Of a stretch of 64,000 bases of DNA, positions 16,093-44,482 are shown piece by piece (the first letter of the stretch is position 1; the number at the start of each line of letters is the position of its first letter). The DNA comes from an uncultured Acidobacteriaceae bacterium. GTDB taxonomy: Bacteria > Acidobacteriota > Terriglobia > Terriglobales > Acidobacteriaceae. Under the pieces are notes generated by a model. The model was not told the origin of the DNA and did no database searches. It was given only the letters and a program-made list of their open reading frames with translations. The position numbers and the translations under genes are program-made. Location: positions 611,277-675,276 of the forward strand of contig CAWDZV010000003.1 in the NCBI GenBank assembly GCA_963806985.1. The letters run 5' to 3'.

Positions 16093-16164
16093 AATCCGGG
16101 AATTGGGGTTAACGAGCTAAGGTCCACGTTCCCCGGACGCTGTAGAGAAAGTTGTTAGATATTC

Positions 16165-17163: not shown

Positions 17164-17226
17164 TCGGCTTGCATGGCAAACTGATGCGCAGGGCGGGTTG
17201 GGGTGGGATATTCGGGATTGGGCACA

Positions 17227-18175: not shown

Positions 18176-18188
18176 TGAGGGTTGGAAG

Positions 18189-19061: not shown

Positions 19062-19140
19062 TTTGCAATTTGTAATTGGTAATTTGAGATCAAAAGCAAA
19101 GGCGTTCAAATTACCAACTACAAATCGCAAATTACCAATT
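19054..19140. repeat. ATTTGTAATTGGTAATTTG palindromic element, copy 2
   Basis: Arms at 19054-19087 and 19106-19140 are about 34 bp and near-complementary, with an 18-nt loop. It sits between sulfotransferases 2 and 3. Confidence 0.75.
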
Positions 19141-19144
19141 CATC

Positions 19145-20005
19145 ATGCTGGCCCACGTCAAATACGCCGTGAAGTATCTCCTGGGACGCGATCAGGCCGG
19201 GAATGATTTCACTGTTTTTCCCGACGACACCTTTCTCGTGTCGTATCCGAAGTCGGGTAATACATGGGTCCGTTTCCTGCTGGCGAATTTGATCTATCCC
19301 AACGAGACTGTGGGTTTCGCCAATATCAACCGACTCCTGCCCGCGCCGGGGGTTTCGTCCAAGCGATTTCTGAAGGGTCTGCCCCGGCCGCGCATTTTAA
19401 AGAGTCACGAGCCGTTTGACGTTCGATTTCGGAAGGTTATCTACCTGGTCCGCGATCCGCGCGACGTTGCGGTCTCCGAGTATCACTTCGACTTGAAGAA
19501 GCGCTATATCGAGCCGGATGTCACTCTAGAACAATTCGTCGAGCGCTTCATCAAGGGCACAACTTCAGGCTACGGTTCGTGGTGGGAACACACGGCGAGT
19601 TGGATTGGCGCGCGGCACGGTAATCCGGCCTTTCTTTTGGTTCGTTATGAAGACCTGCTCTCAGAGCCCGTCAGCGAAACTGGCAAGATTGCTGAATTCC
19701 TCGGAATTCAGGCCGGACCGGAGCGTCTTGGGGCAGCGGTGCGACGAAGCTCCGCGGATCGCATGCGCAAGCTCGAAAAACAGCAGGCCGACCAGTGGAC
19801 GGGAACCAAGAATACGCGCAAAGAAATTCCCTTTGTCCGCGCTGCGAAATCGGGCGGATGGAAGGAAACTCTGCCTCAACCTTGCGTGCAGGAGATTGAA
19901 ATTGCGTGGGCTCCGCTTTTGAATTTTCTTGGCTACTCGCTGCAGACGCCGGAATTGGACAACAAAACTGTGCCATCGTGGGTCCGGACGGGTCAGCCAC
20001 TCTAA
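19145..20005 (+). CDS. PAPS-dependent sulfotransferase (paralog 3)
   Basis: Motifs are YPKSGNTWVRF and RDPRDVAVSEY. It is collinear with paralogs 1 and 2. Confidence 0.8.
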   Translation: MLAHVKYAVKYLLGRDQAGNDFTVFPDDTFLVSYPKSGNTWVRFLLANLIYPNETVGFANINRLLPAPGVSSKRFLKGLPRPRILKSHEPFDVRFRKVIYLVRDPRDVAVSEYHFDLKKRYIEPDVTLEQFVERFIKGTTSGYGSWWEHTASWIGARHGNPAFLLVRYEDLLSEPVSETGKIAEFLGIQAGPERLGAAVRRSSADRMRKLEKQQADQWTGTKNTRKEIPFVRAAKSGGWKETLPQPCVQEIEIAWAPLLNFLGYSLQTPELDNKTVPSWVRTGQPL

Positions 20006-20109
20006 TGGACGTCTTAATAAACGTCGGCGCCATCATGTTCCAAGTGCAGGGAAGAGCTATCTGCTCCCGATGAATTACTTCCTGAGTTGGGTTCAATGAG
20101 TTGCTTGCC

Positions 20110-21675
20110 ATGAGCACCAACAAACGGCAAATCATGAAGAATGTCGGCTCCAGTTGGTTCTCGCTGGGGGTTGATGTCGTTGTCGGCTTCTTGCTGTACC
20201 CCTTCATCCTGCACAAACTGGGCGATACGGCTTCCGGCATCTGGGTTTTGATCTTCTCGATTACCGGCTACTACGGCCTGTTCGATCTCGGAATTCGTTC
20301 CTCGGTGGTTCGCTACGTTTCGAAATTTACCGCCGTCGACGATATTGAAGACCTGGCCAAGCTGATCAATACTAGCCTTTTCAGCTACAGCTGCATCGGT
20401 GTTCTGAGTTTGATGGTCACCGGGCTTCTCGCGGCCTATGTCGACAATCTATTCAAAATTCCGGCAGGATTCCATTCCACTGCTCGCCTGTTGCTGTGGA
20501 TGGTCGGGGCCGCGATTGCACTCGGCTTCCCCCTGGGCGTAGTCGGCGGTTTCCTGGATGGGCTGCAGAAGTTCTACGTCAACAACTGGACGAGCGTTGC
20601 GGGTAATGCTGTTCGCGTAGTTCTGATCGTGACTGCTCTTACCCACGGTAAGGGATTACTCACCGTGGCGGCGATCACGGTTGTTCTTCCCATCTTTAAC
20701 TCGCTGGTGCGGGGAGCTATCGCCTTCCGCATTCATCCCGTTCCCTTGGGGATGAAATACGTGGACCGCAAGACCTTCCGCCTTATTGCGAACTATAGCG
20801 GGGTCACGCTGATCATCATGATCGCGACCCAGCTCAAGTTTAAGACTGACAACATCGTGATTGGCAGCATGATCTCGGCGGCCGCCGTTACTTACTTCAC
20901 CATCGGCTCGCGGATCGTGAATTACACGCAGCAGGTGGTGATGGCGCTGGCGCAAAACTTTCTTCCTTTGGCCAGCGAGTCTGAGGCGACCGGAAAAATG
21001 GACCGCCTGCGAAAAGTTTTCGTGGCTGGAAACCGCTTGTGCGCCTTCACTTGTTTCCCCATCACGGCGACGCTGCTGATTTTGGGCAAGTCGGTGATCG
21101 AAGTGTGGGTGGGGAAGAGATATATCGCGACGAGCTACCCGGTGCTTGTGATTCTGATTATCCCGGCCACGCTGATGTGGGCGCAGGCGGCGTCGGGACG
21201 CGTGCTCTTTGGAATCAGCAAACACAAGACCTGGGCGTTCGTAACGCTGGCTGAGGGTATTGCCAACCTTGTGCTTAGCATCATTTTGGTGCGTCCGTAT
21301 GGAATCGAGGGCGACGCTTATGGCACGGCCATACCGCTCGCTTGCAGCATGATTCTTTTCATGCCGGGGCATTTGTGCAAGCAACTTGGAATTCGCGTGC
21401 GAACCTACTTGCGCGAAGCGTACACCCTGCCAATTCTCATTACAGTGCCTATGGTGCTCGTGCTTCTCTTGCTGCAACGCTGGTTCATCCCGCACCATTA
21501 TTTCGAATTGGCCTTGCAACTCCTGATCGCCGGGGCGGTCTACGGGTTGGGATTGCTTTGGGTGGTGTTGACGAAGCGGGCTCTGCGTGTTGGCGAGCTT
21601 GCGCCAGAGGAAAATCAAGTTGCAGCGGAGATCGGCCCTCCTGAAGTGATCGAAACCTATCAGCCGGGAGGATAA
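20110..21675 (+). CDS. Polysaccharide biosynthesis protein, Wzx-like MOP-family flippase
   Basis: About 520 aa with roughly 12-14 hydrophobic helices. The N-terminus (KNVGSSWFSLGVDVVVGFLLYPFILHKLG) is typical of oligosaccharide flippases. Confidence 0.7.
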   Translation: MSTNKRQIMKNVGSSWFSLGVDVVVGFLLYPFILHKLGDTASGIWVLIFSITGYYGLFDLGIRSSVVRYVSKFTAVDDIEDLAKLINTSLFSYSCIGVLSLMVTGLLAAYVDNLFKIPAGFHSTARLLLWMVGAAIALGFPLGVVGGFLDGLQKFYVNNWTSVAGNAVRVVLIVTALTHGKGLLTVAAITVVLPIFNSLVRGAIAFRIHPVPLGMKYVDRKTFRLIANYSGVTLIIMIATQLKFKTDNIVIGSMISAAAVTYFTIGSRIVNYTQQVVMALAQNFLPLASESEATGKMDRLRKVFVAGNRLCAFTCFPITATLLILGKSVIEVWVGKRYIATSYPVLVILIIPATLMWAQAASGRVLFGISKHKTWAFVTLAEGIANLVLSIILVRPYGIEGDAYGTAIPLACSMILFMPGHLCKQLGIRVRTYLREAYTLPILITVPMVLVLLLLQRWFIPHHYFELALQLLIAGAVYGLGLLWVVLTKRALRVGELAPEENQVAAEIGPPEVIETYQPGG

Positions 21676-24844: not shown

Positions 24845-26038
24845 ATGGCCTCTACCTTTTTTCGATCAGTACGATCGCTCGAAGCCGACAACTCGCAGCG
24901 TTCTTATTTGGGTCTCGCTCTGGCTGCCTGCTTGCTGGCGGCGTGGATACTGTGGTTTTTTCTAGCGCGAGTATCGGTTTACGCGGTCACGGACAAGGCC
25001 GATTTGGAAGTGGATCGGGCGGCGCATCCGGTGGAATCGGTGGTCAGCGGCCGAGTCGTGGCGACCGATATGACGCTTGACCAGGAAGTAAAGGCTGGGG
25101 ATGTTCTGGTTGAGCTTGACTCTGGTGCTCAGCAGTTTCAGCTCACTGAAGAGAAGACGCAATTAGCAGGCGCGAATCCACAAATCCGTTCCCGCGAAGA
25201 AGAGATCGTCTCGGAAGGGCAGGCGCTGGAGCAGGATCAGAAATCGGCCAAGGATGCGCTGGAGGAAGCGCGGGCGCACTACCGGGAGGCCGAGGCGGCG
25301 GCGCAATTTGCGCAAGCGGAAGCAGATCGATTGAGCAAGATGTACAACGCCGGGGTAGTGGCGGAACTGGATCTGAACCGGAGCGTCGCCGATGCACAGC
25401 AGCGCCGTGCCGCTGCGGACAGTTTGAAGTATGCGGTGGAGCGACTGGAAGGCGAGCAACGCACGCGTACCAACGAGAGACGTGCACACATCGAACAAAT
25501 GACAAGCGAACTCAACAGGCTGCGCGGCGACCAGGCTACGGCGGGCGTGACTCTGCAGCGCCTGGAAGAAGAAGTAGATCGCCGGTATATACGCGCGCCG
25601 ATTGATGGGAAGTTGGGCGAAGTGGCGCCCTTGAGGGTGGGAGCGGTGGTCCACGAAGGCGATAAACTCGCCGCCGTCATTCCGTCGGGGAAGCTGCGAG
25701 TGGTGGCGAACTTCGATCCACCAGCGGCTTTGGGGCGCATACGGCCGGGGCAGCATGCACGGCTGCGGCTGGAAGGGTTTCCGTGGGCGCAGTATGGAAG
25801 CGTAGGCGCGACCATCACTAGTGTGGCCAGCGAGATTCGCGATGGCAGCATACGAGTGGAGATGGCGATCGATCCGAATTCCTCGTCTCGTATTCCCCTG
25901 CAACACGGGCTGCCTGGGTCGGTGGAAGTTCAGATTGAAACCGTCTCGCCCGCGAATCTCGTGCTGCGTACGGCGGGAAGCTTAGTGGCCAGCCCTAAGA
26001 ACAATTTCACAAATCTCGGCGTGGTGACGGCGCGATGA
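24845..26038 (+). CDS. HlyD-family membrane fusion / secretion protein
   Basis: One N-terminal TM helix, a long coiled-coil (EEARAHYREAEAAAQFAQAEADRL...) and a C-terminal beta-barrel segment. Its stop overlaps the next start as ATGA. Confidence 0.8.
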   Translation: MASTFFRSVRSLEADNSQRSYLGLALAACLLAAWILWFFLARVSVYAVTDKADLEVDRAAHPVESVVSGRVVATDMTLDQEVKAGDVLVELDSGAQQFQLTEEKTQLAGANPQIRSREEEIVSEGQALEQDQKSAKDALEEARAHYREAEAAAQFAQAEADRLSKMYNAGVVAELDLNRSVADAQQRRAAADSLKYAVERLEGEQRTRTNERRAHIEQMTSELNRLRGDQATAGVTLQRLEEEVDRRYIRAPIDGKLGEVAPLRVGAVVHEGDKLAAVIPSGKLRVVANFDPPAALGRIRPGQHARLRLEGFPWAQYGSVGATITSVASEIRDGSIRVEMAIDPNSSSRIPLQHGLPGSVEVQIETVSPANLVLRTAGSLVASPKNNFTNLGVVTAR

Positions 26039-28797
26039 ATCTGGGCCGGCGCCGCATATTTGTTCCGGAGGTGGTGCAGACGTTGGTGATGGATTGCGGA
26101 CCGGCATCGCTGAAGTGTCTGGCGGAGGGATTCGGCATACCTGTCAGCTACGGGCGCTTGCGGGAAGCCTGCCAGACCGATGTCGATGGGACTTCGATCG
26201 ACACGATGGAAGAGGTTGCGAAGCAGTTGGGACTGGAAGCAGAACAGATTATGGCACCAGCGGATTTTGTGCTGCTTCCGGAAGCGAACCTGTTGCCCGC
26301 GATCGCAGTGGTTATTCGCGCCAGCAAGTTAACCCACTTCGTGGTCGCATGGCGGAGCCACGGCGCTCTGCTGCAAGTCATGGATCCCGCGCTAGGCCGC
26401 CAATGGGAGCCGAGGGCGCAATTTGTTTCCAGTCTTTACATCCACACGCTGCCAGTTAGCGCTCAAGGTTGGAGAGAGTGGGCGGAGTCGGAGGAGTTCA
26501 CGCTACCGGTGCGACGGAAGTTGGATGACCTGGGCATTTCGGGGAAGGCTGCGACGGGCTTGATTGAAAACGCGGTCAATGCTCCCGGCTGGCGAGGTCT
26601 GGCTCGACTCGATGCTGGTGCGCGAAGCATGGGCGCAATTGTCAGATCCGGAGGATTGCGGAGAGGAAAGGAAGCGGAGCGGGTGCTGGAACGGCTGCTC
26701 GTTTCGAGCCGGGATGAACGGAGTCAGGGTGAACGGAGTCAGGATGAACAAGCCAGCGGAAGCGCGAAAGAAGAGTACGGCGTAATCCCATCCAATTATT
26801 GGTCAGCATGGTCGGCGCCTCCCGATGAGGAAAACGGAGAGGAGCGCGTTTTCTTTAAGGGCGCGGTGCTGGTGCATGTGAAGGGACGCCGCGCCGAATC
26901 AGCGGCGGTGGAAACTGAGAAGCTTCCGCCGGAGGTGGCTGCCGCACTGCAAGAGAAGTCGAGCGAGCCTGGCCGAGAACTCCTGCGCATGCTAAAGGCG
27001 GACGGGCTCCTTGCGCCTGCGGCGGCGGTGACCGCTCTTTTTCTTGCGACCCTCGGAGTATTGATCGAGGCAGTCTTGTTTCGCAGCTTGCTCGATATGC
27101 CGCGTCAGTTCGGATTGTATGGACAGCGGCTGGGGGTGATGGCAGCCCTATTGATTTTTTTGACCGCCTTGATGCTTCTTGAGTTGCCAATCGCATCGGG
27201 CGTTCTGCGAATTGGCAGGCATCTCGAGGCGCGGCTGCGAACCACGTTTCTCGAAAAAATTCCCAAGCTCGGAGATCGATATTTTCATAGCCGCTTGACC
27301 TCCGATATGGCGGAGCGCAGTCATAGTACGCACCGCATACGGCTGCTGCCGGGATTGGGCGGTCAGGTTCTTCGTTCGACGTTTGAACTCATAGCTACGG
27401 TTGCGGGAATCATCTGGCTGGACGCTCGCCTCGCGGTGCCGGCTCTGATCGCCGCGGCGCTGGCGGTGGGCTTGCCTTTGGCCGTGCAGCCCATGCTCAC
27501 CGAAAGAGACCTCCGAGTGCGCAATCACATGGGAGCGCTGAGCCGTTTCTATCTTGACGCGTTGTTAGGTCTGGTTCCTGTACTCACGCACAGAGCCGAA
27601 CGCGCCTTGCGACGGGAACATGAAAGCTTGTTGGTGGAATGGGCTCATGCATCGTTTGGATTGCAAAGCCTGGCAGTTTGGGTCGAAGCGTTGCAGGGGT
27701 TGACTGGATTTGGCTTGGCTGCCTGGCTGATGCTCGACCACATCAGCCGCGCGGGCGAGGCCGGAGGCGCACTGCTGCTTGTCTACTGGGCGCTCAATCT
27801 GCCGGGGCTGGGTGAGGAGATTGCGCAGGTCGCGCGCCAATATCCTTCCTACCGGAACGTCACGCTTCGACTGCTGGAGCCGATTGGCGCGCTCGAAGAT
27901 GAAGGTGGCGTTGAAAGTAAGGAGAATGCAAACGAATTTGAATCAGCGCCTCGAATTGAGGATTTATCGCTGGAAGGATCCGGCGGCGCATCCATCGAGC
28001 TGACCAAAGTAAACGTGCACGCCGCAGGACACACCATTCTGGAAGAGATCAATTTAAAGATTGATCCGGGCGATCATGTGGCTATTGTTGGCGTCTCGGG
28101 TGCGGGAAAATCGAGCCTGCTGGGCCTGCTTCTGGGTTGGTATCGAGCGGCCGAGGGAAGCGTGCTGGTCGATGGTGCCGCGCTGGAGGGCGTGCATCTG
28201 GACCAGTTGCGTCAGCAGACTGCGTGGATTGATCCGGCAGTGCAGCTGTGGAATCGCTCTCTGTTTTCAAATCTCTGCTACGGCAATCCGGACGCTATGC
28301 CAACCGCAGAGTTGTTGGAACAAATTGAACTGCGCCAGTTGCTCGAAAAATTGCCGGAGGGAATGCAAACGAAACTCGGGGAAAGCGGTGGCCTGATTTC
28401 TGGTGGTGAGGGGCAGCGGGTTCGACTGGGACGCGCTCTGCTAAAACGCGGAGTGCGCCTCGCTCTGCTCGACGAACCCTTTCGGGGACTTGATCGGCAG
28501 GCGCGGCGAGAGTTGCTGGCGCGCGCCCGCCGGCACTGGGCGAGCACGACATTGTTGTGCGTCACCCACGATGTGGGCGAGACACTGACATTTCCTCGCA
28601 CGCTGGTGATTGAGAACGGACGCATTGTCGAGGATGGGAACCCGGCAGAGCTTGCTCGAAGAATGAATTCGCGTTATCGAGCGCTGCTTGAGGCGGAGGA
28701 GAGTGTGCGGGAAAGTTCGTGGTCGGGCGGCGCCTGGCGACACCTCCGGCTGGAAGGTGGCCGCCTGATCGAAGAGTTGCAACGGGCCCGGGCATGA
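26035..28797 (+). CDS. Bacteriocin-type ABC transporter with N-terminal C39 cysteine peptidase domain
   Basis: C39 residues are present (MDCGPASLKCL, HFVVAW, DP). An insert of about 190 aa precedes the TMD. Other motifs are Walker A GVSGAGKSS, signature ISGGEGQRV and Walker B LALLDEP. Confidence 0.8.
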   Translation: MNLGRRRIFVPEVVQTLVMDCGPASLKCLAEGFGIPVSYGRLREACQTDVDGTSIDTMEEVAKQLGLEAEQIMAPADFVLLPEANLLPAIAVVIRASKLTHFVVAWRSHGALLQVMDPALGRQWEPRAQFVSSLYIHTLPVSAQGWREWAESEEFTLPVRRKLDDLGISGKAATGLIENAVNAPGWRGLARLDAGARSMGAIVRSGGLRRGKEAERVLERLLVSSRDERSQGERSQDEQASGSAKEEYGVIPSNYWSAWSAPPDEENGEERVFFKGAVLVHVKGRRAESAAVETEKLPPEVAAALQEKSSEPGRELLRMLKADGLLAPAAAVTALFLATLGVLIEAVLFRSLLDMPRQFGLYGQRLGVMAALLIFLTALMLLELPIASGVLRIGRHLEARLRTTFLEKIPKLGDRYFHSRLTSDMAERSHSTHRIRLLPGLGGQVLRSTFELIATVAGIIWLDARLAVPALIAAALAVGLPLAVQPMLTERDLRVRNHMGALSRFYLDALLGLVPVLTHRAERALRREHESLLVEWAHASFGLQSLAVWVEALQGLTGFGLAAWLMLDHISRAGEAGGALLLVYWALNLPGLGEEIAQVARQYPSYRNVTLRLLEPIGALEDEGGVESKENANEFESAPRIEDLSLEGSGGASIELTKVNVHAAGHTILEEINLKIDPGDHVAIVGVSGAGKSSLLGLLLGWYRAAEGSVLVDGAALEGVHLDQLRQQTAWIDPAVQLWNRSLFSNLCYGNPDAMPTAELLEQIELRQLLEKLPEGMQTKLGESGGLISGGEGQRVRLGRALLKRGVRLALLDEPFRGLDRQARRELLARARRHWASTTLLCVTHDVGETLTFPRTLVIENGRIVEDGNPAELARRMNSRYRALLEAEESVRESSWSGGAWRHLRLEGGRLIEELQRARA

Positions 28798-28843: not shown

Positions 28844-31054
28844 ATGAAAGAAGATTTGCCCTCGCTTTTCTGGTCGTCTTCCGAGCTAGGCTCTGGTCTC
28901 GAAGCTCTGGCACGCAAGAGCGAACTGCGGCCCTCTTCTGTGCAGGTCCCGAACCCTCCAAGCTCGGTTGCTTCGCTGGATAATACGGCCGCGAGCCGTG
29001 ATGCATTGAGCCAATGGATCGAGTCGGCGGCCAGTTGGCTGGGCTTGGAAGCAGAGCCTTCGGCTGTGCCCTACGAGGGGCTGGAGCAAGTTATAGAGAA
29101 TGCCGGATTGGCGGTGCTGCAAGTGCCAGGAGACGGTTCGGCAAAATTCCTCTTTCTTTTCCCACGACCTGTACCCCGAAAAATTTCTGCTCGAAGAAGG
29201 GGACATATATCGGTGCTTGCTCCCGATCTGCGGACGGTCTCACTGCGGCTAGACGCAGTTCGCACACTGCTCTGTAGCGCATTGGAAGAGACGGTCGCGC
29301 CGGAAGTTGACCGCCTGCTCGACGATGCCGGCATTCCCGAGTCGCGACGTGGGGATGCGCGGGCGGCACTCTTGCTCGAACGTCTGAGGGGCAAGGACGT
29401 GGGCGGCTGCTGGCTGCTTCGTCAGTCACCGGGTGCTCCGTTTTGGAGCCAGGCAAATCGAGCCCACTTGCCGAGACGTTTGGGCACGCTACTGGCGGCC
29501 CATGCAGCCGAATATTTTCTGTTGGTTGTTTCCTGGTGGCTTATCGGGCGTGCTGCGCTTTCAGGACATCTGGACCATGGCTGGTTGCTGGCATGGGCGC
29601 TGATTCTGCTAACCCTGGTTCCTTTTCGAGTATTGAGCACGTGGTTGCAGGGCGTGCTGGCGATCAACGGCGGAATTCTCTTCAAACAGCGACTTCTCTT
29701 TGGCGCACTTCGACTGAGACCCGAGGAAATCCGGCACAAGGGTGTAGGGCAGTTTCTGGGCGAGGTCATGGAGTCGGAAGCCGTCGAGTCACTGGCGCTA
29801 AGTGTCGGGTTTCAGGGCTTGACGGGAGCCATCGAATTGATTGCCGCGGAATTCGTTCTCTCGCGAGGCGTGGGGCGCGGGCTGGAGCTGATTTTATTAC
29901 CGGCGTGGTTTGCGCTTACGCTGCTGCTCGGCGTCCGTTATTTTCGGCAACGGCAGCGGTGGACGGAATCGCGGCTCTCGATGACCAACGATCTGACCGA
30001 ACGAATGGTCGGGCATCGCACACGCCTCGCTCAGGAAGCTCGCCAGAACTGGCACGATGGTGAAGATGAGGAACTGGAGCGCTACCTGGAGATGTCGAGA
30101 AAGATGGACGGCGCGGCCGCGCTGCTTATGGCTCTCGCTCCGCGCGGCTGGCTGCTGCTCGGGATGCTTGGTTTGACCGGAGCATTTGCCGCCAGCCAAG
30201 GTCTAAACATTAGACTCGCAATTTCTCTTGGCGGAATCCTGCTGGCGTATCGCGCGCTGAAAAGACTTTCCTTAGGCCTGATTGCTCTCGCCGACGCTAT
30301 TATTTCGTGGCAACAGGTTGCTCCACTGTTTCAGGCAGCGGGCAGAACGCAATTGCAGGGGTCTCCCGCAGTCGCTCTTACGCCTGCCGCTGGCGAGGAT
30401 GACGTCCGAAACGATGCCGTCAGAAATGCTGAGCGCGGAAACCAGGCGGTGATGGAGGCTCACGATCTTGTTTTTCGCTATCAGGAGCGGGGCGAGCCAG
30501 TGTTGAAAGGATGCAGCCTGAGGGTTTGTCCCGGCGACAGGCTTCTGTTGGAGGGGTCGTCGGGCGGAGGTAAATCCACATTGGCGTCGCTGCTTGTCGG
30601 CTTACGAGTGCCGCAATCAGGCCTGCTCTTGCTTCGTGGGCTGGACCGGCAAACGCTTGGTGACGAAGGCTGGCGTCAGCGCGTTGTCTCCGCGCCCCAA
30701 TTCCATGAGAACCATGTGCTCACAGAAACCTTCGCCTTCAACCTTTTAATGGGCCGCCGCTGGCCGCCGCACGAAGAGGATATGCGGGAAGCGTCGGCGA
30801 TTTGCCGCGAACTCGGTCTTGAGCCCCTGCTCAGCAAGATGCCGGCGGGAATGTTGCAAATGGTTGGGGAGACAGGCTGGCAGCTCTCGCACGGGGAACG
30901 CAGCCGGGTTTACATCGCCCGGGCGCTGCTCCAGCGCGCGGAGGTGGTGATTTTCGACGAGAGCTTTGCCGCGCTCGATCCGGAAAATGTTAAGCTGGCA
31001 CTCGGCTGTGTGCTGCGCCGGGCGCGGACTTTGCTCGTGGTGGCACATCCGTGA
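28844..31054 (+). CDS. ABC transporter permease/ATPase without peptidase residues (second subunit of the exporter)
   Basis: Has a 200-aa N-terminal domain of unknown type, then a TMD. Motifs are Walker A GSSGGGKST, signature LSHGERSRV and Walker B VVIFDES. Confidence 0.75.
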   Translation: MKEDLPSLFWSSSELGSGLEALARKSELRPSSVQVPNPPSSVASLDNTAASRDALSQWIESAASWLGLEAEPSAVPYEGLEQVIENAGLAVLQVPGDGSAKFLFLFPRPVPRKISARRRGHISVLAPDLRTVSLRLDAVRTLLCSALEETVAPEVDRLLDDAGIPESRRGDARAALLLERLRGKDVGGCWLLRQSPGAPFWSQANRAHLPRRLGTLLAAHAAEYFLLVVSWWLIGRAALSGHLDHGWLLAWALILLTLVPFRVLSTWLQGVLAINGGILFKQRLLFGALRLRPEEIRHKGVGQFLGEVMESEAVESLALSVGFQGLTGAIELIAAEFVLSRGVGRGLELILLPAWFALTLLLGVRYFRQRQRWTESRLSMTNDLTERMVGHRTRLAQEARQNWHDGEDEELERYLEMSRKMDGAAALLMALAPRGWLLLGMLGLTGAFAASQGLNIRLAISLGGILLAYRALKRLSLGLIALADAIISWQQVAPLFQAAGRTQLQGSPAVALTPAAGEDDVRNDAVRNAERGNQAVMEAHDLVFRYQERGEPVLKGCSLRVCPGDRLLLEGSSGGGKSTLASLLVGLRVPQSGLLLLRGLDRQTLGDEGWRQRVVSAPQFHENHVLTETFAFNLLMGRRWPPHEEDMREASAICRELGLEPLLSKMPAGMLQMVGETGWQLSHGERSRVYIARALLQRAEVVIFDESFAALDPENVKLALGCVLRRARTLLVVAHP

Positions 31055-31144: not shown

Positions 31145-33721
31145 ATGGTCGGCAAGACACTTCGCTCCTATCGCATTGAGTCGAAACTCGGTGCCGGTGG
31201 AATGGGTGTCGTTTATAAGGCCGTGGACTCGCGCCTCGACCGGATGGCCGCCATCAAGGTGCTGGTCGCCTCCGCAGTCAGCGCCGACCGGGAAAAACGA
31301 TTCACTCAGGAAGCTAAGACTGCATCTTCGCTGAACCACGCGAACATCGTCACCATCTATGACATCGACACACAGGAGATAGATGGCAAGCCGGTTCACT
31401 ACATCGCCATGGAGTACGTGGCCGGCGAAACGCTCGATCATTTGATCGGGCGCAAAGGGCTGCGCGTGCGTACCGCGCTGAAGTATGCGGCGCAGATTGC
31501 CGATGCGCTGGCCGCTGCACACGCCGCAGGCATCGTCCACCGCGATCTGAAGCCCTCGAATGTGATGGTGACGCCGCAAGAGGTGGTGAAGGTTCTTGAT
31601 TTCGGCCTGGCCAAGTTGAACGAAGAGACCGAAGCCGATGCTTTTGCGGAAACGATCCATGGCGATGGCGCTCCTCTTACGGAAGAGGGGACGATTCTTG
31701 GCACGGTCGCCTATATGTCGCCGGAGCAGGCGGAAGGCAAGAAAGTTGATGCCCGTTCGGACATTTTTTCGTTCGGCTCGATGCTTTACGAAATGCTGAC
31801 AGGGCAGCGTGCCTTCACGGGCGGGTCTAAACTGGCGTCTCTTTCGGCAGTCTTGCATCAGGAGCCGCAACCTGCTTCGCAGACGGTTGCAGACCTTCCG
31901 CCGGAATTGGAACGGATCATCGCGCGGTGCATGAAGAAGGACCCAGCGCGCCGATGGCAGAGCATGGCCGACGTGAAGGTCGCTTTGGAGGAGTTGCGGG
32001 AGGAGACGGAATCAAGCAGCGTCGACCAAACGAGACCCAGTTTAGCGACTGGGGGAAAGCGTACGGCGCTCCCGGCCAAACGCTGGCTGGTCCTAGCCGT
32101 TGTGGGTCTGCTTCTGGTGGGACTTGTCGTTGGTGCATACTCGGCGCGAAGGTACTTGCGCGCAGAGCCACTCACGTTCCAACGGGTAACCTTTCGGCGA
32201 GGCGACGTCACGGCAGCGAGGTTTGGTCCGGGCGATGAAATTATTTATAGCGCCAAGTGGGACGGAGGTCCATCGACGCTATTCTCCACCCAGCCGGGAA
32301 ATCGTGAAGCCCGGCCGTTAGGCCTTCCGACGAGTCAGATTTTAGCAATCTCCCACACCGGCGAAATGGCGATTCTGCTGGGCGATGAAGATATAGGGAC
32401 ACTGGCGCGTGTGCCCTTCAGCGGAGGCGCGCCTCGTGAAATGCTGGAGAATGTCAGCGGGGCGGACTGGAGTCCCAGTGGAGACACATTGGCGGTGGTG
32501 CGATCGATCAGGGGAAAAAATCGGCTCGAATATCCCATAGGGACTGTGCTGTATGAAAACGATGCGCGCCCGCCACTTGCGCCACGAGTGTCCGCCGACG
32601 GCAAACTTGTGGCTTTTTTCGACTTCGATGTGGAGGTGGGAGATTACTCGTTATGCGTGGTTGGTTCTAATCGGCCGAAGCAGGTTCTTTCCCGGGGATG
32701 GCGGACGGTGAGTCACTCGCTGAGTTGGTCTCCGAGCGGAGATGAGATCTGGTTTGCCGCCGGCCAGCCGGGCAGCGATCCCGCGCTCTACGCGGTGACT
32801 CTTTCAGGCAAGCAGCGGCTTCTGGCTCAGACTCCTGGCGTGATTGTGATGCAGGATTTGGCCGCCGATGGCCGCGTGCTGCTGAGCACGGTCAACTCTC
32901 GACTTGGCATTCGTTATGTCGACTTCGAACATTCCACCGAGCGCGATCTCGCATGGCTGGACGCTTCCATGCTCTTTGAGATGTCCAATGACGGGAAGAG
33001 CCTGGTGTTTGTGGAGCTCTCTTACGGCGAAGGGCGCAATGCAGCAATCTATTTGCGTAAGACCGATGGGTCCCCCGCGGTAAGACTGGGGTATGGCAAC
33101 CGGCCTTCGCTCTCGCCGGATGGAAAGTGGGTAGTGTGCATCCGTCGCGATGCCGCGCGCGCACGCTTGATGCTGCTGCCGACGGGGCCGGGGGAATCGC
33201 GCTTTCTGAACGTCGAGGGAGTGTACTTCGAGTCGCTCGGGTGGTTCCCGGATAGCAAGCGGGTTGTCTTTACCGGGAATGAGCAGGGACATCCGGTTCG
33301 GACGTGGATCTACGATCTGGACTCCGACAAAGCCACGCCACTTACGACGGAGGGGACGAGAGGCGGCCCAGTTTCTCCGGACGGCCGCTGGTTCGTGATT
33401 GCCGATGTGCATCAGTTATCGCTCGCGCCGGTTACGGGGGGAGCGCCGCGCAAGATAGCCCAGTTGCAGAATGGCGAGGAGGTGGTGAGGTGGAGCGGGG
33501 ATGGACGCTATCTTTTTCTGCGGCAGCCGGAAGAGGATACAGAGAAGATCAGCCGGCTCGAGGTCGCCAATGGGCGCAAAGAACCCTGGCGGACGCTGAA
33601 GGTTCCCGAGCCGGGCGCCGAATTTCTAGGACTCCTCGCACTGTCGGAGGATGGGAAGGAATGCGCTTTCTCCTTTCAGCATGATCTGGCTAACCTCTAT
33701 CTGGTAAAGGGACTGCAGTGA
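31145..33721 (+). CDS. Hanks-type Ser/Thr protein kinase with one TM helix and a periplasmic TolB-like (PD40) beta-propeller
   Basis: Kinase motifs are GAGGMGVVYKA, HRDLKPSN, DFGLA and TVAYMSPEQ. The TM helix is WLVLAVVGLLLVGLVVGAY. Repeated SPDGK/SADGK/SGDGR PD40-like blocks follow. Confidence 0.85.
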   Translation: MVGKTLRSYRIESKLGAGGMGVVYKAVDSRLDRMAAIKVLVASAVSADREKRFTQEAKTASSLNHANIVTIYDIDTQEIDGKPVHYIAMEYVAGETLDHLIGRKGLRVRTALKYAAQIADALAAAHAAGIVHRDLKPSNVMVTPQEVVKVLDFGLAKLNEETEADAFAETIHGDGAPLTEEGTILGTVAYMSPEQAEGKKVDARSDIFSFGSMLYEMLTGQRAFTGGSKLASLSAVLHQEPQPASQTVADLPPELERIIARCMKKDPARRWQSMADVKVALEELREETESSSVDQTRPSLATGGKRTALPAKRWLVLAVVGLLLVGLVVGAYSARRYLRAEPLTFQRVTFRRGDVTAARFGPGDEIIYSAKWDGGPSTLFSTQPGNREARPLGLPTSQILAISHTGEMAILLGDEDIGTLARVPFSGGAPREMLENVSGADWSPSGDTLAVVRSIRGKNRLEYPIGTVLYENDARPPLAPRVSADGKLVAFFDFDVEVGDYSLCVVGSNRPKQVLSRGWRTVSHSLSWSPSGDEIWFAAGQPGSDPALYAVTLSGKQRLLAQTPGVIVMQDLAADGRVLLSTVNSRLGIRYVDFEHSTERDLAWLDASMLFEMSNDGKSLVFVELSYGEGRNAAIYLRKTDGSPAVRLGYGNRPSLSPDGKWVVCIRRDAARARLMLLPTGPGESRFLNVEGVYFESLGWFPDSKRVVFTGNEQGHPVRTWIYDLDSDKATPLTTEGTRGGPVSPDGRWFVIADVHQLSLAPVTGGAPRKIAQLQNGEEVVRWSGDGRYLFLRQPEEDTEKISRLEVANGRKEPWRTLKVPEPGAEFLGLLALSEDGKECAFSFQHDLANLYLVKGLQ

Positions 33722-33817
33722 GTCATGAATCAATGAAAGCGGTGCGTTCTCGCGCAGCCAGAGATATGCTCGCCGCAGCGGGGCGAGGACGCCCGGCGCT
33801 CCATTGCGGGAGTCGGT

Positions 33818-35770
33818 TTATGCGCGACGCTGGCGCTTGGGCGTGAGATTCAGGGTCCGGATCAGACGGAACAGATGGTTGGGATGCACGCCGAGGATGC
33901 CAGCCGCGTCCGTATAGTTGCCATCGGCCTGCTCGATCGCCTGCTCGATGAGTTTCTTCTTGGCCTCGCGGATGCCGTCGTGCAGCGCCGTAATTGGCTC
34001 GCCGGAAGAAGATGCTGTTTCTTCCAGGATCGAATCGGGCAGGTCTTCGGGCAGGATCAATTCCGTCGAACCCAATACCACCGCTCGTTCGATGGCATTT
34101 TCGAGTTCGCGCACGTTGCCCGGCCAAGGATAGCGCAGCAGGCAGGCCCGCGCCTTCGGAGATATGCCGGCGACGCGGCGCTTTACTCTTTCGCTATAGC
34201 GAGCCGTGAAGAAGGCTGCCAGCATCGGGATATCTTCGGTACGTTCCCGCAAGGGAGGAATCTTGATGGAGACCACGTTGAGCCGGTAATAAAGGTCTTG
34301 CCGAAATTTTCCGTTGCGTGACGCTTCGTTGAGGTCCACATTGGTGGCGGTAATCAGCCGGATATCGAGTTTAATTGGGCGCGTGCCGCCTACGCGTTCG
34401 AACTCGCGCTCCTGCAAAACCCGCAATAGCTTGGCTTGCAGGGAATGGGCGAGCTCGCCGATCTCATCGAGAAACACTGTGCCACCCTCGGCGGTTTCCA
34501 GCTTTCCTTTTTTCTGGCCAACGGCGCCGGTGAATGCCCCTTTCTCGTGGCCAAAGAGTTCACTCTCCAGCAGAGTATCGACTATAGCCGCACAATTGAT
34601 GGCCACAAATGGCCGGTCGGCACGGCCGCTGTTGCTATGAATGGCACGGGCAACCAGTTCTTTTCCCGTGCCGCTCTCGCCATGGATGAGGATGGTCGAT
34701 TCGCGCGGCGCCACCCGCGAGACAAACTGATAGACCTCGCGCATGGGCTGGCTTTCGCCAACCATGCTGTGTTGTATGTTAAGTTCCTGCTGCAGGCGGC
34801 GATTCTCATCTCCGAGCCGTTCCAGGTGGCTCGCGTTTTCGATCGCGAGCGCGGCCACGTTTCCGAGCGCGGTCACCAATTGCAACAGAGCCGAATCGAA
34901 AGGAGCGGCGTGCGAAGTGGTATCCAGATAGAGCGCGCCCAGGATTTTGTCCTGCACCTCGAGTGGAACGGCTAGCACGGCATGCACCTGAGGTTCGATC
35001 AGGCTCTCCGCCACACGAAACGCCTCGTCGCCTGGAACATCGTTGCAGAGCACCGCCAGATTCTCTTTGATGACCTGGTTCAGAATTGTTTGGCTGACTT
35101 GAATCGGTTGATTCGGGCCCAGTCGCCGGTCCCAACCGACTACGGAGGTGAATCCTTCAGCTCCCTCTTCGGTCAACAGTATGGCGGCTCGGTCGGCGGA
35201 AGAGATTTCGAGGACCGCTTCCAGGGCTTTCTGCTGAAGCGCAGCTAAGCCACGGACCGAGTTCAGACTGGTGCTGAAGTTGAGAAGAACGTTCAAATCG
35301 CGAACCGTGCGCTCGGTGGCCCCCAGCGTGCGGAGCCGTGCGGGCTGCAGATAAATGGCATCCTGCTTGCGCAATATCACTGTGGCTCCGCCGGGCGTTG
35401 GGGCGGAATTAAACTCCACCGAGGAATTATCGTGAGAATTTTCCAGAGACAAACCCTGGAATACCAAAATTGATTTACCGATCCGTATCTGGTCGCCGTT
35501 CGTCAGCCGTCTCTCTTTGACGGGCACATCGTTCACGAAAGTACTATTTCTGCTGTCCAAATCCTCGAGCAGAAAGCCTTCGCCGTCCCTGCGAATCACG
35601 CAATGCCGCCGCGATGCCAGCGAGTCCAGCAGCGAAATCTGGTTGGAGGGATCACGACCGATCGATAATTCATCGTCGGTGAGGGGAAAAGTTCGGCCAT
35701 GGAGTGGTCCAGCCACTGCTTCGAGCCGGGCAGGGCTCGAGGAAACCCCCTCTGAATCGTGATTTGTCAC
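33818..35770 (-). CDS. Sigma54-dependent enhancer-binding protein with FHA-GAF-AAA+-HTH architecture
   Basis: The FHA block is [23 protein letters not shown]...NSTFVN, followed by a GAF segment. AAA+ motifs are GESGTGKE and the sigma54-contact GAFTGA. A C-terminal Fis-type HTH is present. The start is GTG. Confidence 0.85.
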
Positions 35771-35799
35771 TCGATGAGTATACCAACCGTCGATTTCGT

Positions 35800-35820
35800 G
35801 CGCTTTCTAACATAGATGCG
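35800..35820. promoter_or_regulatory. Candidate upstream activator site, box 1 (GCGCTTTCTAACATAGATGCG)
   Basis: A 21-nt box about 140 bp upstream of sigma54 promoter 1. It matches a box at 36496-36516 about 150 bp upstream of promoter 2 at 18 of 21 positions. Confidence 0.4.
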
Positions 35821-35949
35821 TGATCGCGAAGCGGAAGCGCTAGGTTTTCACGAATAGAGCGGCGCTCACCAAAGAACCGACCATCGTTTTCTCCCGTGGT
35901 TTCAATAAGAAAAACAGACGATGCCAGGAAGGAACTCAGTGGTTACTTT

Positions 35950-35965
35950 TGGCACACAGCTTGCA
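35950..35965 (+). promoter_or_regulatory. Sigma54 (-24/-12) promoter 1
   Basis: The sequence TGGCACacagcTTGCA matches TGGCAC-N5-TTGCW exactly. It is divergent from the EBP gene and lies about 65 nt upstream of micro-ORF 1. Confidence 0.8.
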
Positions 35966-36028
35966 TTACTTAAGTGCGTTACCGCAACTTGAAAGGCCAA
36001 ACAAAGTCCGAAAGAAAGGAGCACTCCG

Positions 36029-36079
36029 ATGAAAGTCAAGACGAACATGAAGGCTGGCAGCGCACTGTGGGGCAGCTAG
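36029..36079 (+). CDS. Micro-ORF 1, 16 aa: MKVKTNMKAGSALWGS
   Basis: AAGGAG lies 7 nt upstream of the ATG and the stop is TAG. It is one of five conserved copies whose differences are mostly synonymous. Confidence 0.65.
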   Translation: MKVKTNMKAGSALWGS

Positions 36080-36148
36080 AAGTCCGAAAAGATCGACCAT
36101 TAAACAAAGGCTTTAGGAAGCGAAAATCTCAGGAAAGGAGCAACCCCT

Positions 36149-36199
36149 ATGAAGGTTAAAACGAATGCAAGAGCGGGCAACGCGTTGTGGGGCGGCTAA
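36149..36199 (+). CDS. Micro-ORF 2, 16 aa: MKVKTNARAGNALWGG
   Basis: AAGGAG SD, ATG start and TAA stop. Against micro-ORF 1 it shows 7 synonymous and 4 conservative replacement differences. Confidence 0.65.
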   Translation: MKVKTNARAGNALWGG

Positions 36200-36267
36200 T
36201 GCTGAAAGTTTTTTTAAACAATCGAAAACTGACAGGCTCATTTAAGAACTCGCTAGCAACAAGAGAA

Positions 36268-36341
36268 GGACGCTCCAAAGGTTGGTGAACACTGGGCTTC
36301 GCAATACCCAGCATCGCCTTTTGGAGTGTCCTCTATTTTTT
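36268..36341 (+). terminator. Probable intrinsic terminator of micro-ORF module 1
   Basis: ggacgctccaaagg pairs with ccttttggagtgtcc and encloses the inner hairpin ctgggc..cccag. The tract tctaTTTTTTg follows. Confidence 0.55.
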
Positions 36342-36495
36342 GCTGCTCTAACGTTCTAACGGGTGCCATTCGAGCGAACTTATCTTCGTGGCCAAAGTCA
36401 CCCATAAGAGATCCCAAGGGTGTCTCGTTCCCCTAGCAGCCCGCCTTTCAGGGTGGTCTGGCTGCGCGCGGCGAGCGCAAGCAACCAGCGGTCTC

Positions 36496-36516
36496 GCGCT
36501 ACCTAACATAAATGCG
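36496..36516. promoter_or_regulatory. Candidate upstream activator site, box 2 (GCGCTACCTAACATAAATGCG)
   Basis: Matches box 1 and occupies a comparable position relative to sigma54 promoter 2. Extra TCTAAC/GTTAGA words occur at about 36345-36362, 36534-36540 and 36634-36640. Confidence 0.4.
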
Positions 36517-36656
36517 AGTTCAGCAAGCCGAATTGTTAGATCGTCTGGCGAGGGGGGACGATGAAGGCCAGAGGCTGAGTAGCCTGACGCTGTGTATCTC
36601 TTTTGTTTTCAATGCGGGAGCAGGTGTCGATATTGTTAGAAACCCGCTGTTACTTT

Positions 36657-36672
36657 TGGCACACCGCATGCA
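36657..36672 (+). promoter_or_regulatory. Sigma54 (-24/-12) promoter 2
   Basis: The sequence is TGGCACaccgcATGCA, with the same GG-to-GC spacing as promoter 1. The flanks are conserved (ttacttt upstream and ttact downstream). Confidence 0.75.
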
Positions 36673-36732
36673 TTACTAAAGTGCATGAAGGCAAGTGGAA
36701 AACAAAAAAATTCAGAAGAAAGGAGCAATCCG

Positions 36733-36783
36733 ATGAAAGTCAAGACGAACATGAAGGCCGGCAGCGCACTGTGGGGCAGCTAA
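36733..36783 (+). CDS. Micro-ORF 3, 16 aa: MKVKTNMKAGSALWGS
   Basis: AAGGAG SD, ATG start and TAA stop. It differs from micro-ORF 1 by one synonymous change (GCT to GCC). Confidence 0.65.
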   Translation: MKVKTNMKAGSALWGS

Positions 36784-36860
36784 TTCAAGGGTTCCCAAAA
36801 ACCGTGAATTGAGTTTAGAAGCAACTGAGCACGGAAAAATCCCACGAAAGGAGCAATCCG

Positions 36861-36911
36861 ATGAAAGTCAAGACGAACATGAAGGCTGGCAGCGCACTGT
36901 GGGGCAGCTAA
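36861..36911 (+). CDS. Micro-ORF 4, 16 aa: MKVKTNMKAGSALWGS
   Basis: AAGGAG SD, ATG start and TAA stop. Its coding sequence is identical to micro-ORF 1. Confidence 0.65.
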   Translation: MKVKTNMKAGSALWGS

Positions 36912-36993
36912 CTTAACAGTTTATAACGAGTTGATAGCTAGAGAAACAGGCAGCGAAGCGATCTAACAAATCCCCGGATAAGGAGCCAGTCCA

Positions 36994-37044
36994 ATGAAAG
37001 TTAAGACGAACACGAAAGCGGGCAACGCATTGTGGGGGAGCTAA
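36994..37044 (+). CDS. Micro-ORF 5, 16 aa: MKVKTNTKAGNALWGS
   Basis: AAGGAG SD, ATG start and TAA stop. Against micro-ORF 1 it shows 5 synonymous and 2 replacement differences. Confidence 0.65.
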   Translation: MKVKTNTKAGNALWGS

Positions 37045-37117
37045 GTTCAACGGCTTACCTGAACCGAACAAAATCAGTATCGCGTATCGAGAAGTTTCAA
37101 GAATTAGAAGCATAAGG

Positions 37118-37180
37118 GTGCTTCAAAGGTTAAAACTGGGCTTCGAACACCCAGCGTCCCCCCTTCGGAGCATCTTTTTG
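37118..37180 (+). terminator. Probable intrinsic terminator of micro-ORF module 2
   Basis: Homologous to 36268-36341, with the inner hairpin ctgggcttcgaacacccag, the outer arm cccttcggagcat, and then cTTTTTg. Confidence 0.5.
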
Positions 37181-37372
37181 CTTGATGGCCGACCCCGTCC
37201 TCACTGAGCATCCCTGTCGCGATGTCCAATTCAGCGCGATTCTGAAAACCACAACTGCCAAGTCCCACGGCGTTCGCCGAATCTCGTTCCTGGCTGCGGC
37301 GGTTTGAGATCCGGAATGGGCGATCTTTGTCCTGATTATCTTCGGCGTGATCCCGTTTAGCATTACAGAGGT

Positions 37373-43374: not shown

Positions 43375-43447
43375 TTACGGCGCAAGAATCTAACCTCAAT
43401 CGTGCGGCAAAGTGATGTGACGCGGTTAAGGCCGAGGTGCATCAGTT

Positions 43448-44482
43448 ATGCCACTGGCAAGAATCATTACGTGGTCCGAGACATGCGGTCAACAGCTCGC
43501 GCTGGATCTCGTTGCTCGCGGGTACGCCGTCGAAGTCGTCGCTCCTGACTCGGTGCCGGACAACTTCGCCGATTTGGTGTTGCGAGTCGGAGAGGATTCC
43601 GGAAAACTGGTCGCGAGTGTGGAAGCGCACAACGGCGGGCGTACGGCTTCTCTTGATTTTGTGCATCACTTGCGAGTCCCGCTGGCAGATTCTAGGATGC
43701 CGGCAAACGTTGAGGTGGTTTGTCTTTCGGGGGGACCAGCCAGCTTAGAGGCGGGATCGAGCACAGAACAGGTGCCCTTGTCGGCGGACGTTCCGCCACT
43801 GGGGATCAAAGCAGCGTCTCCCCAGCAGCCGAGTTTAAGCGCCGCACGTCCGGACTCGGACGACCCAGTTCCAGCCATTTCGGAGCGCTCGCGATTGGTT
43901 GAAACAGCTTCGCTAGCCCGAACGTCCGTGGCGTCCGTAAAAGGCCCGACCATCTCGCCGAGGCAAGCTGTGCGACTCAACCGGCCTTCAGCGTGGCAAT
44001 GGCGGGCGGCTCTGGCTACTGCCTGCATGGTGTCGCTGGCTCTGGCGCTCGCACTCGGGGGACGCCGCTTCGAAAAAACTCCCGTTGCGGTTCCGCAGGT
44101 AGATTCAGAAGAACTCGCGTTTCCATCGATCGATTCGTACTCGCCGGCCGCTGCTTTTGAGAATGATCCGCAGAAAGGTCGGACGAATGTACCGAAAGCT
44201 ATTTTCGGTTTGCCGGCACTCCCTTCGGTCGCGCAACGGGGAGGGGTTGCCGATCACATGTCAAAGAATTCAGCGGCTACTACTGCCGGAGACTCAGTTG
44301 TCAGAGCGTCTATAGTCGATAGAACGGAACGTTCCCGCCGGCACGATGGTTTGATAGCGCGCGACACCGTTATTTATCTGGACGGGAGGGGCCGACCTGC
44401 GCGGAAAGCGCGCGTAGCGAAGGGTATCGCCGCGAACACCGTCACCTATCTCAGCAAGCCGATTCCGAAACCGGCAAAATAA
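43448..44482 (+). CDS. Hypothetical protein with one central TM helix
   Basis: 344-aa ORF with coding-like composition and the hydrophobic segment AALATACMVSLALALALGG. No family was recognised. Confidence 0.4.
   Translation: MPLARIITWSETCGQQLALDLVARGYAVEVVAPDSVPDNFADLVLRVGEDSGKLVASVEAHNGGRTASLDFVHHLRVPLADSRMPANVEVVCLSGGPASLEAGSSTEQVPLSADVPPLGIKAASPQQPSLSAARPDSDDPVPAISERSRLVETASLARTSVASVKGPTISPRQAVRLNRPSAWQWRAALATACMVSLALALALGGRRFEKTPVAVPQVDSEELAFPSIDSYSPAAAFENDPQKGRTNVPKAIFGLPALPSVAQRGGVADHMSKNSAATTAGDSVVRASIVDRTERSRRHDGLIARDTVIYLDGRGRPARKARVAKGIAANTVTYLSKPIPKPAK

Follow-up and report, generated by a model that had tools for sequence, protein, structure and literature searches.

In a 64-kb stretch of DNA from an uncultured Acidobacteriaceae bacterium (contig CAWDZV010000003.1), a gene for a membrane Ser/Thr kinase and a gene for a sigma-54 activator with an N-terminal FHA domain face each other, and beyond the activator lie two tandem sigma-54 promoters, each followed by a short array of 16-codon open reading frames (ORFs), referred to here as micro-ORFs. 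The whole 64-kb stretch is called the window, and all position numbers are window coordinates. A first-pass annotation had placed the kinase and activator at 31145-35770, and these limits are exact, being the kinase ATG at 31145 and the activator GTG start codon at 35770 on the minus strand. The genes and sites concerned are as follows.

31145-33721, plus strand: Hanks-type Ser/Thr kinase with a periplasmic PD40/TolB-type tandem beta-propeller sensor (Pfam, motifs and model); catalytic domain about 31169-31963, transmembrane helix 32084-32146, sensor 32177-33718
33818-35770, minus strand: sigma-54 enhancer-binding protein, FHA-GAF-AAA+-HTH (Pfam and direct motif reading); FHA 35456-35713, GAF 34835-35248, AAA+ with GAFTGA 34007-34765, HTH_8 33872-33970
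35777-35785, minus strand: TGG-TATACT extended -10-like box, 6 nt upstream of the activator start codon
35805-35847, unstranded: upstream activating sequence 1, a CTAACAT half-site plus a distal (C)TAGG, degenerate copy of the consensus CCTAACATAAATGTTAGG-N~12-TTGTTAGG
35950-35965, plus strand: sigma-54 promoter 1 (TGGCACacagcTTGCA), exact consensus match, TGGCAC-N5-TTGCA
36029-36079, plus strand: micro-ORF 1, MKVKTNMKAGSALWGS, with Shine-Dalgarno GAAAGGAGC 7 nt upstream
36149-36199, plus strand: micro-ORF 2, MKVKTNARAGNALWGG (ORF reading)
36264-36341, plus strand: intrinsic terminator of array 1, long hairpin and U-tract, dG -36.6 kcal/mol, z -5.18
36501-36541, unstranded: upstream activating sequence 2 (CCTAACATAAATG ... 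ATTGTTAG), by motif
36657-36672, plus strand: sigma-54 promoter 2 (TGGCACaccgcATGCA), exact consensus match
36733-36783, plus strand: micro-ORF 3, MKVKTNMKAGSALWGS (ORF reading)
36861-36911, plus strand: micro-ORF 4, MKVKTNMKAGSALWGS (ORF reading)
36994-37044, plus strand: micro-ORF 5, MKVKTNTKAGNALWGS (ORF reading)
37108-37183, plus strand: intrinsic terminator of array 2, long hairpin and U-tract, dG -31.3 kcal/mol, z -4.38

Related loci were collected by a scan of a single genome for each species, with the kinase sensor domain as the sole query. This gave 80 loci (L numbers below) with sensor identities of 58-84%, nearly all titled as metagenome-assembled genomes of Terriglobales, Acidobacteriaceae or Ca. 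Sulfotelmatobacter. Gene linkage was counted in the 71 survey loci with at least 4.5 kb of flank downstream of the kinase, and activator orthologs were 53-85% identical over the N-terminal 330 amino acids (aa).

The first-pass annotation had called the neighbour of the activator a Hanks-type kinase with PD40/TolB-like repeats, and both halves of that description hold. The kinase, 858 aa from its ATG (849-869 aa in orthologs), matches Pfam Pkinase (PF00069) at E 2.4e-51, and direct reading finds the GAGGMG, AAIK, HRDLKPSN, DFG and SPE motifs of a Hanks-type Ser/Thr kinase, the catalytic motifs being intact here and invariant in 76 orthologs. In the activation loop T170, T179 and T187 never vary, and 71 of the 76 have T183. 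A single transmembrane helix (residues 314-334) is followed by about 515 C-terminal residues with PD40 matches (E 7e-10), for which the closest solved relative by profile is TolB (E 1e-8). The AlphaFold model of this sensor is all-beta, with about 48 strands at pLDDT 69; Foldseek matched it to generic and tandem propellers with TM-scores of 0.25-0.46, TolB and S9 peptidase propellers are its nearest solved relatives, and the TM-score against the TolB structure was 0.44-0.46, normalised to TolB. A TolB ortholog was considered and rejected (TIGR02800, 46.1 bits vs a cut-off of 343.15). The TolB alignment covers propeller blades only, the strands of the sensor number about twice those of a single TolB propeller, and the sensor is fused to a kinase; judged by the model, it is TolB-like in fold only. 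Relatives of the kinase at 70-90% identity number in the hundreds in soil and peat metagenomes, and the named ones are assigned to Terriglobales. At L090:5050-7627 one of the three assemblies with the exact locus splits the kinase into two ORFs (451 and 364 aa), either because of an assembly indel or as a natural frameshift variant.

The activator is 650 aa long. Pfam finds FHA (PF00498, E 1.1e-19, residues 36-98), GAF (E 9.6e-15, residues 177-310), Sigma54_activat (PF00158, E 3.5e-72, residues 336-502), AAA_lid_14 (E 7e-27) and HTH_8 (E 6.7e-6), and direct reading places Walker A GESGTGKE at residue 364, GAFTGA at 411 and Walker B FLDEIG at 433. An AAA+ domain with Walker A/B and GAFTGA, a Fis-type helix-turn-helix, and a predicted enhancer with a -24/-12 promoter are what a sigma-54 enhancer-binding protein should have. 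Pfam returned no Response_reg match in the activator, and an NtrC-type two-component response regulator is ruled out by the N-terminus, which consists of FHA and GAF without a receiver. The Pfam domains confirm the earlier description of a receiver-less enhancer-binding protein with N-terminal FHA and GAF, and the residues used to bind phospho-Thr are intact: G38-R39, S53-x-x-H56 and S73/N75/T77 are conserved at 95-100% in 68 orthologs. By these residues the domain can be read as a phospho-Thr-binding FHA domain. In the linker between FHA and GAF, T130 (TVIL) and T155 (TVRD) are about invariant, have FHA-friendly +3 residues, and are candidate phospho-acceptors.

In public records the activator appears only as 'Nif-specific regulatory protein' or 'sigma 54-interacting regulator'. 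Assignment as NifA was rejected, the top NCBIfam match, TIGR01817, scoring 422.8 bits vs a cut-off of 528.85. The 'Nif-specific' name is misleading, since the protein falls below the NifA cut-off, has an extra FHA domain, and has no nif genes nearby (none among the window ORFs scanned). In 68 intergenic regions a GAGTATAC column block is at least 90% conserved and the TGG-TATACT box stops 6-8 nt short of the activator start codon, which lacks a Shine-Dalgarno sequence. The box is probably a sigma-70 promoter of the activator, whose mRNA may be leaderless.

The first-pass annotation had also pointed out that the activator gene is divergent from sigma-54 promoter 1, and the classical arrangement of activator, enhancer and promoter is confirmed. 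Exact matches to TGGCAC-N5-WTGCA occur twice in the 64 kb (at 35950 and 36657) vs 0.15 expected by chance. The window enhancers are half-palindromic (CTAACAT ... TGTTAG/TAGG), upstream activating sequence 1 lying about 100-145 bp upstream of the -24 element. Across 68 aligned activator-proximal intergenic regions the palindrome CCTAACATAAATGTTAGG, a predicted enhancer, is at least 90% conserved and is accompanied by a second TTGTTAGG half-site; about 100-145 bp separate it from a GG-N10-GC promoter downstream. This promoter, TTTGGCAC-N5-TTGCATTAC, is common to the same regions (-24 GG in 68/68, -12 TGC in 67/68) and stands at a fixed distance of about +190 to +215 nt from the activator start; a AAGGAGCA Shine-Dalgarno sequence and ATG at fixed spacing are also common to these regions. 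As far as sequence can tell, the layout is that of a textbook enhancer-binding protein and its target.

Midway between enhancer and -24 element, at about 35895-35915, is a conserved TCTCC...TATCAAT box with a homologous column in the 68 loci. A DNA-bending protein such as IHF or HU might bind there, and the match to the IHF consensus is only partial. The whole unit of enhancer, promoter, peptide genes and terminator is tandemly duplicated in the window (35800-36345 and 36495-37185), and the distant relatives L076 and L078 have the same whole-unit duplication independently. A one-mismatch sigma-54-like site, TGGCATAACTGATGCA, lies at 43438-43453 on the minus strand with no obvious downstream gene on that strand, and is probably a chance match, because four one-mismatch sites were found vs 4.5 expected.

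Of the two units in the window, the first holds two 16-codon ORFs and the second three, each with a GAAAGGAGC Shine-Dalgarno sequence, in a 1.7-kb region of the contig that public gene calls leave empty. A sigma-54 promoter and a small peptide gene lie next to the activator in all but two loci, and the peptides fall into two types. Type A comprises 70 copies in 18 loci, every one exactly 16 codons long, with the consensus M-K-V-K-T-N-[T/A/M]-K-A-G-[N/S]-A-[L/M/V]-W-G-[S/G]; Thr5, Ala9, Trp14 and Gly15 are invariant and Gly10 is found in 69 of 70 copies. Variation by codon position 1/2/3 is 86/79/250, and the third-position excess indicates that type-A ORFs are under selection as protein. Type B, in 48 loci, is 44-83 aa long (121-122 aa in multi-repeat forms), with a signal-peptide-like N-terminus and a conserved tail, ...A-A-D-G-G-P-L-x-x-C-P-P-x-x-x-x-C..., in which the Cys spacing is C-x6-C in 41 of the 48. 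Some type-B genes open with MKVKTNAK, as in type A, and in L012 and L019 a single promoter precedes genes of both classes.

No NCBIfam family matched either peptide type or a concatenated pair of 16-mers. A protein-database search with type B gave 168 clusters, all 'hypothetical' and without a Pfam domain. The tandem micro-peptides that had been put forward as the output of the system have that role in one clade only, that of the window; family-wide the output is a Sec-type small Cys-loop peptide of about 57 aa. Multi-core type-B precursors occur at L004:16855-17223, in L027 (about 15.8-16.2 kb) and in L042 (about 20.2-20.5 kb); a signal peptide is followed by 2-4 tandem units of about 22 residues (ADGGPIITCGPKDKACMNNLPV), each with its own Cys-x6-Cys pair, a structure which suggests that one type-B precursor may be processed into several small disulfide-looped peptides.

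An activator ortholog lies within 10 kb of the kinase in 66 of the 71 loci and is convergent to it in 64. In one of the five exceptions the activator is about 10.3 kb from the kinase, so that the linkage is then at least 67/71. Residual synteny was rejected as the cause, since nine other window genes flanking the module were found in 0 of the 80 loci. In four contigs looked up separately, from relatives 71-82% identical, an FHA-GAF activator again faces the kinase, and the surroundings are otherwise unrelated. A gene neighbourhood not conserved elsewhere had been named beforehand as grounds for abandoning the proposed link; the neighbourhood is kept, in 66/71 species-level genomes.

In the window 96 nt (33722-33817) separate the stop codons of the convergent pair, and this region folds no better than shuffled sequence (z -1.36). 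Across the loci the convergent junction is an insertion hot-spot, occupied for example by a GH3 glycosidase in L004 and by about 10 kb of inserted DNA in L020. At L059:12088-14784, minus strand, the activator gene is followed after 33 nt by a same-strand gene for a second, paralogous PD40-sensor Ser/Thr kinase, with 44-46% identity in the catalytic domain, and L067 and L068 have a kinase-domain match in the same place; we take these downstream kinases as an independent hint of a link between kinase and activator. Another paralogous PD40-sensor kinase is found just beyond the micro-ORF array at L018:14929-17610, minus strand. Six other loci have a kinase-domain match 1-1.5 kb past the peptide gene, and the one scanned, in L035, is a BON-domain kinase.

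Directly upstream of the kinase in the window, on the same strand, are three exporter genes.

24845-26038, plus strand: HlyD-type periplasmic adaptor (Pfam HlyD_3, E 1.9e-12), first gene of the exporter-kinase string
26035-28797, plus strand: ABC exporter with N-terminal C39 peptidase, 920 aa (Peptidase_C39 3.5e-19, ABC_membrane, ABC_tran)
28844-31054, plus strand: second ABC permease/ATPase without a peptidase domain, 736 aa (ABC_tran 5.3e-19)

The HlyD gene overlaps the C39-ABC gene by 4 nt, and the second ABC gene is always accompanied by the C39-ABC gene. The catalytic Q..DCG, THFVV and MDPA of the C39-ABC protein are present by direct reading, and the catalytic Cys, His and Asp motifs can be read in 17 ortholog N-termini, with the exception of the Cys motif of L012, whose first ~40 residues fall out of frame in the translation. 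By its domains the protein belongs to the C39-ABC family. This trio lies upstream of the kinase in 16/16 loci with type-A peptides vs 0/46 without them. Such strict co-occurrence points to the 16-mers as cargo, and the co-located HlyD/C39-ABC/ABC exporter is their most likely route out of the cell. Ala9-Gly10, the sole Gly-Gly-like site in the 16-mer, is kept in 69-70 of 70 copies; it is the candidate cleavage site, and its use would give a hexapeptide such as SALWGS. The exporter genes, absent from the first-pass annotation, belong to the signalling system. No maturation enzyme recurs among the inspected loci, whose upstream neighbours differ. Membership of the trio in the NHLM family was rejected, the three proteins scoring 39, 156.1 and 105.7 bits vs cut-offs of 156.2, 853.3 and 709.4, and the NHLM_micro_HlyD score marks the HlyD adaptor as a related non-member.

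Taken together, we consider it probable that kinase, FHA activator, sigma-54 and peptide genes form one circuit, carried as a single conserved cassette in Terriglobales. This is in essence the circuit of the first-pass annotation: its architecture, linkage and promoter anatomy are supported, and the step from kinase to FHA domain is one that we infer from linkage and residue conservation, with the adjacent kinase as the FHA partner. A periplasmic cue would be read by the PD40/TolB-type tandem propeller of the single-pass membrane Hanks kinase, which would autophosphorylate on T170, T179, T183 and T187 of its activation loop. The FHA domain would then read phospho-Thr, either by docking on the kinase or after phosphorylation of the activator itself, with T130/T155 as candidates. 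The sign of the regulation may be either activation or sequestration at the membrane. Once switched on, the AAA+ assembly would act from the conserved palindromic enhancer about 125 bp upstream of the -24/-12 promoter, and sigma-54 RNA polymerase would transcribe short, terminator-bounded units coding only for small peptides. In the clade of the window, the C39-ABC system would process and export the 16-mers; we likewise infer the cleavage, export and biological role of the peptides.

Several observations weigh against this circuit. The stop-to-stop gap between kinase and activator is 1-185 nt in 29 loci, and 0.3-6.5 kb of unrelated genes are inserted in 37 of the 66; the two genes are not co-transcribed, because they are convergent. 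As the genomes hold many Ser/Thr kinases, some of them nearby, the FHA domain could read a different kinase. The juxtamembrane linker of the kinase, a common place for FHA docking, is poorly conserved and contains 0-9 Thr, sometimes none at all, and so was discarded as a conserved site where phospho-Thr would be docked. For the activator, the AlphaFold model, from an alignment of 28 sequences at least 82% identical, has a pLDDT of 40 with modest FHA and HTH parts, and so cannot place T130 and T155 in an exposed linker or elsewhere. A further or alternative input from a small molecule is implied by the GAF domain. On the export side, the cleavage site is uncertain, because the putative 10-residue leader is without the usual amphipathic double-glycine pattern. 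Finally, the comparators throughout are metagenome-assembled genomes only.

These points bear first on the possibility that adjacency has no signalling meaning, that is, that the activator is controlled by its GAF domain or its FHA domain reads some other kinase, while the neighbouring kinase serves a different pathway such as envelope surveillance or phospho-regulation of the co-transcribed ABC exporter. The convergent orientation and frequent insertions, the 5 of 71 loci without an activator within 10 kb, the other kinases near the activator in some loci, and the position of the kinase as last gene of the exporter string in the clade of the window would all be expected if this were so. It is nevertheless difficult to reconcile with the at least 67 of 71 genomes in which kinase and activator orthologs are still within about 10 kb of each other and all their other neighbours have changed. 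Nor can the exporter be the conserved partner of the kinase, because the kinase accompanies the activator in 46 loci that have no exporter. An intact FHA domain needs a Thr kinase, and its residues are strongly constrained. We therefore regard meaningless adjacency as unlikely.

The first-pass annotation had also raised autoinduction, in which the exported peptide is the ligand of the kinase propeller and closes a quorum-sensing-like positive feedback loop parallel to ComC/ComAB/ComDE. In its favour, the cassette combines a gene for the peptide with a C39-ABC exporter, a sensor in the membrane and a transcription factor acting on the peptide promoter, and peptide binding is common among propellers of the TolB, prolyl-oligopeptidase and tricorn type. 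Peptide class, however, does not follow sensor phylogeny. The sensors of L005, L007 and L008 are 81-82% identical to that of the window and nest among type-A loci in the sensor-domain tree, yet these loci have Sec-type Cys-loop peptides and no exporter, while L080, with a sensor only 58% identical, has 16-mers; the two loci with both classes behind one promoter (L012 and L019) count against the loop as well. The 16-mers vary very little between species and show nothing like the diversification of pherotypes. Neither an enhancer nor a sigma-54 promoter was found upstream of hlyD or of the kinase in the window, nor in related loci (0/16 for hlyD, 0/75 for the kinase), so that sensor and exporter are not visibly autoinduced. 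A propeller that senses the exported peptide thus finds no support in these comparisons, and we think such a loop improbable. The same low expectation applies to the wider idea of a third architecture of ribosomal-peptide signalling, in which a secreted hexapeptide/16-mer or, in sister clades, a disulfide-looped peptide of about 23 residues would act through propeller, phospho-Thr/FHA and sigma-54; if true, it would be a Gram-negative peptide quorum sensing that is neither two-component nor of the RRNPP (cytoplasmic-receptor) type.

That the micro-ORFs are untranslated and the sigma-54 units yield repeat-containing small RNAs is very hard to believe: the units are short, terminator-bounded and built of repeated modules, and public gene calls leave their 1.7 kb empty, but all 70 copies keep 16 codons, ATG, stop and a well-spaced strong Shine-Dalgarno sequence, their variation is concentrated at third codon positions (250 vs 86 and 79), the spacers between them are not conserved, and the homologous position elsewhere holds an obvious signal-peptide protein starting MKVKTNAK.

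Apart from the cassette, the window contains an unrelated cluster at 12026-21675 that resembles a sulfated-polysaccharide locus and also holds an amine oxidase-like flavoprotein gene, with these members.

12026-13903: fused ATP-sulfurylase/APS kinase
19145-20005: sulfotransferase
20101-21675: polysaccharide flippase-type gene

Three large ORFs in the window had no Pfam match at E 1e-5: 2901-4508 (minus strand, 535 aa), 7772-9694 (minus strand, 640 aa) and 43448-44482 (plus strand, 344 aa).

The proposed circuit of kinase, FHA activator, sigma-54 and peptides resembles several known systems in part. FHA-domain sigma-54 enhancer-binding proteins were reportedly described in Myxococcus xanthus by Jelsbak, Givskov and Kaiser in 2005 (PNAS 102:3010, cited in PMC12288465). 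There, as here, an N-terminal FHA domain replaces the receiver as input and implies a Ser/Thr kinase. The cassette activator differs in having a GAF domain between FHA and AAA+, in its genomic linkage to a specific propeller-sensor kinase, and in belonging to a different phylum, Acidobacteriota; the Myxococcus proteins drive developmental genes, whereas the target here is the adjacent promoter and small peptides only. NifA, NorR and FhlA share the GAF-AAA+-HTH core, to which the window activator adds the N-terminal FHA domain.

In PknH-EmbR (Mycobacterium tuberculosis), PknB-GarA and PpkA-Fha1 the FHA partner docks on phospho-threonines of the kinase, and EmbR is a transcription factor. These systems resemble the cassette in that a membrane Hanks kinase with an extracytoplasmic sensor is encoded beside its FHA partner, but they have other sensor domains and no peptide output, and EmbR is of the SARP/OmpR type and works with sigma-70 polymerase, unlike the AAA+ sigma-54 activator of the cassette. 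The kinase/FHA pathway of type VI secretion (T6SS), PpkA-Fha1, is reviewed in PMC10482370.

The ComC/ComAB/ComDE, Pln and Sak loci likewise cluster the genes for small ribosomal peptides with those for a C39-peptidase ABC exporter and its accessory protein, for a sensor in the membrane and for a transcription factor of their own. They use a histidine kinase and a LytTR regulator where the cassette has a Hanks kinase and an FHA sigma-54 activator; the cassette further differs in its putative leader of 10 residues, in sensor and exporter genes without the regulated promoter, and in its Gram-negative phylum. The NHLP/Nif11 'NHLM' export trio (TIGR03794, TIGR03796, TIGR03797), said to have been described by Haft et al. 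in 2010, has the same layout of HlyD-type adaptor, C39-ABC and peptidase-less ABC and provides the best-named NCBIfam relatives of the exporter. The window cargo, in contrast, is without an NHLP or Nif11 leader, no maturation enzymes are nearby, and the scores are far below the cut-offs. A full-text literature search found no published description of the cassette, which is a new combination of known families with no categorically new mechanism.

To our knowledge the feeding kinase and the controlled promoter of any FHA-type sigma-54 activator have rarely been pinned down, although such activators have been known since 2005. Because kinase, FHA activator, enhancer, promoter and a minimal output occur together in dozens of species, the cassette makes the link between Hanks kinases and sigma-54 directly testable. 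The public name 'Nif-specific regulatory protein' needs correction. With the cassette, two families of small secreted peptides that lack annotation come to light in Terriglobales and Ca. Sulfotelmatobacter. These bacteria abound in peat and soil, next to no genetics exists for them, and gene callers miss the 16-codon genes entirely. The cassette also points to a largely unstudied wiring of eukaryote-like kinases to sigma-54 transcription.

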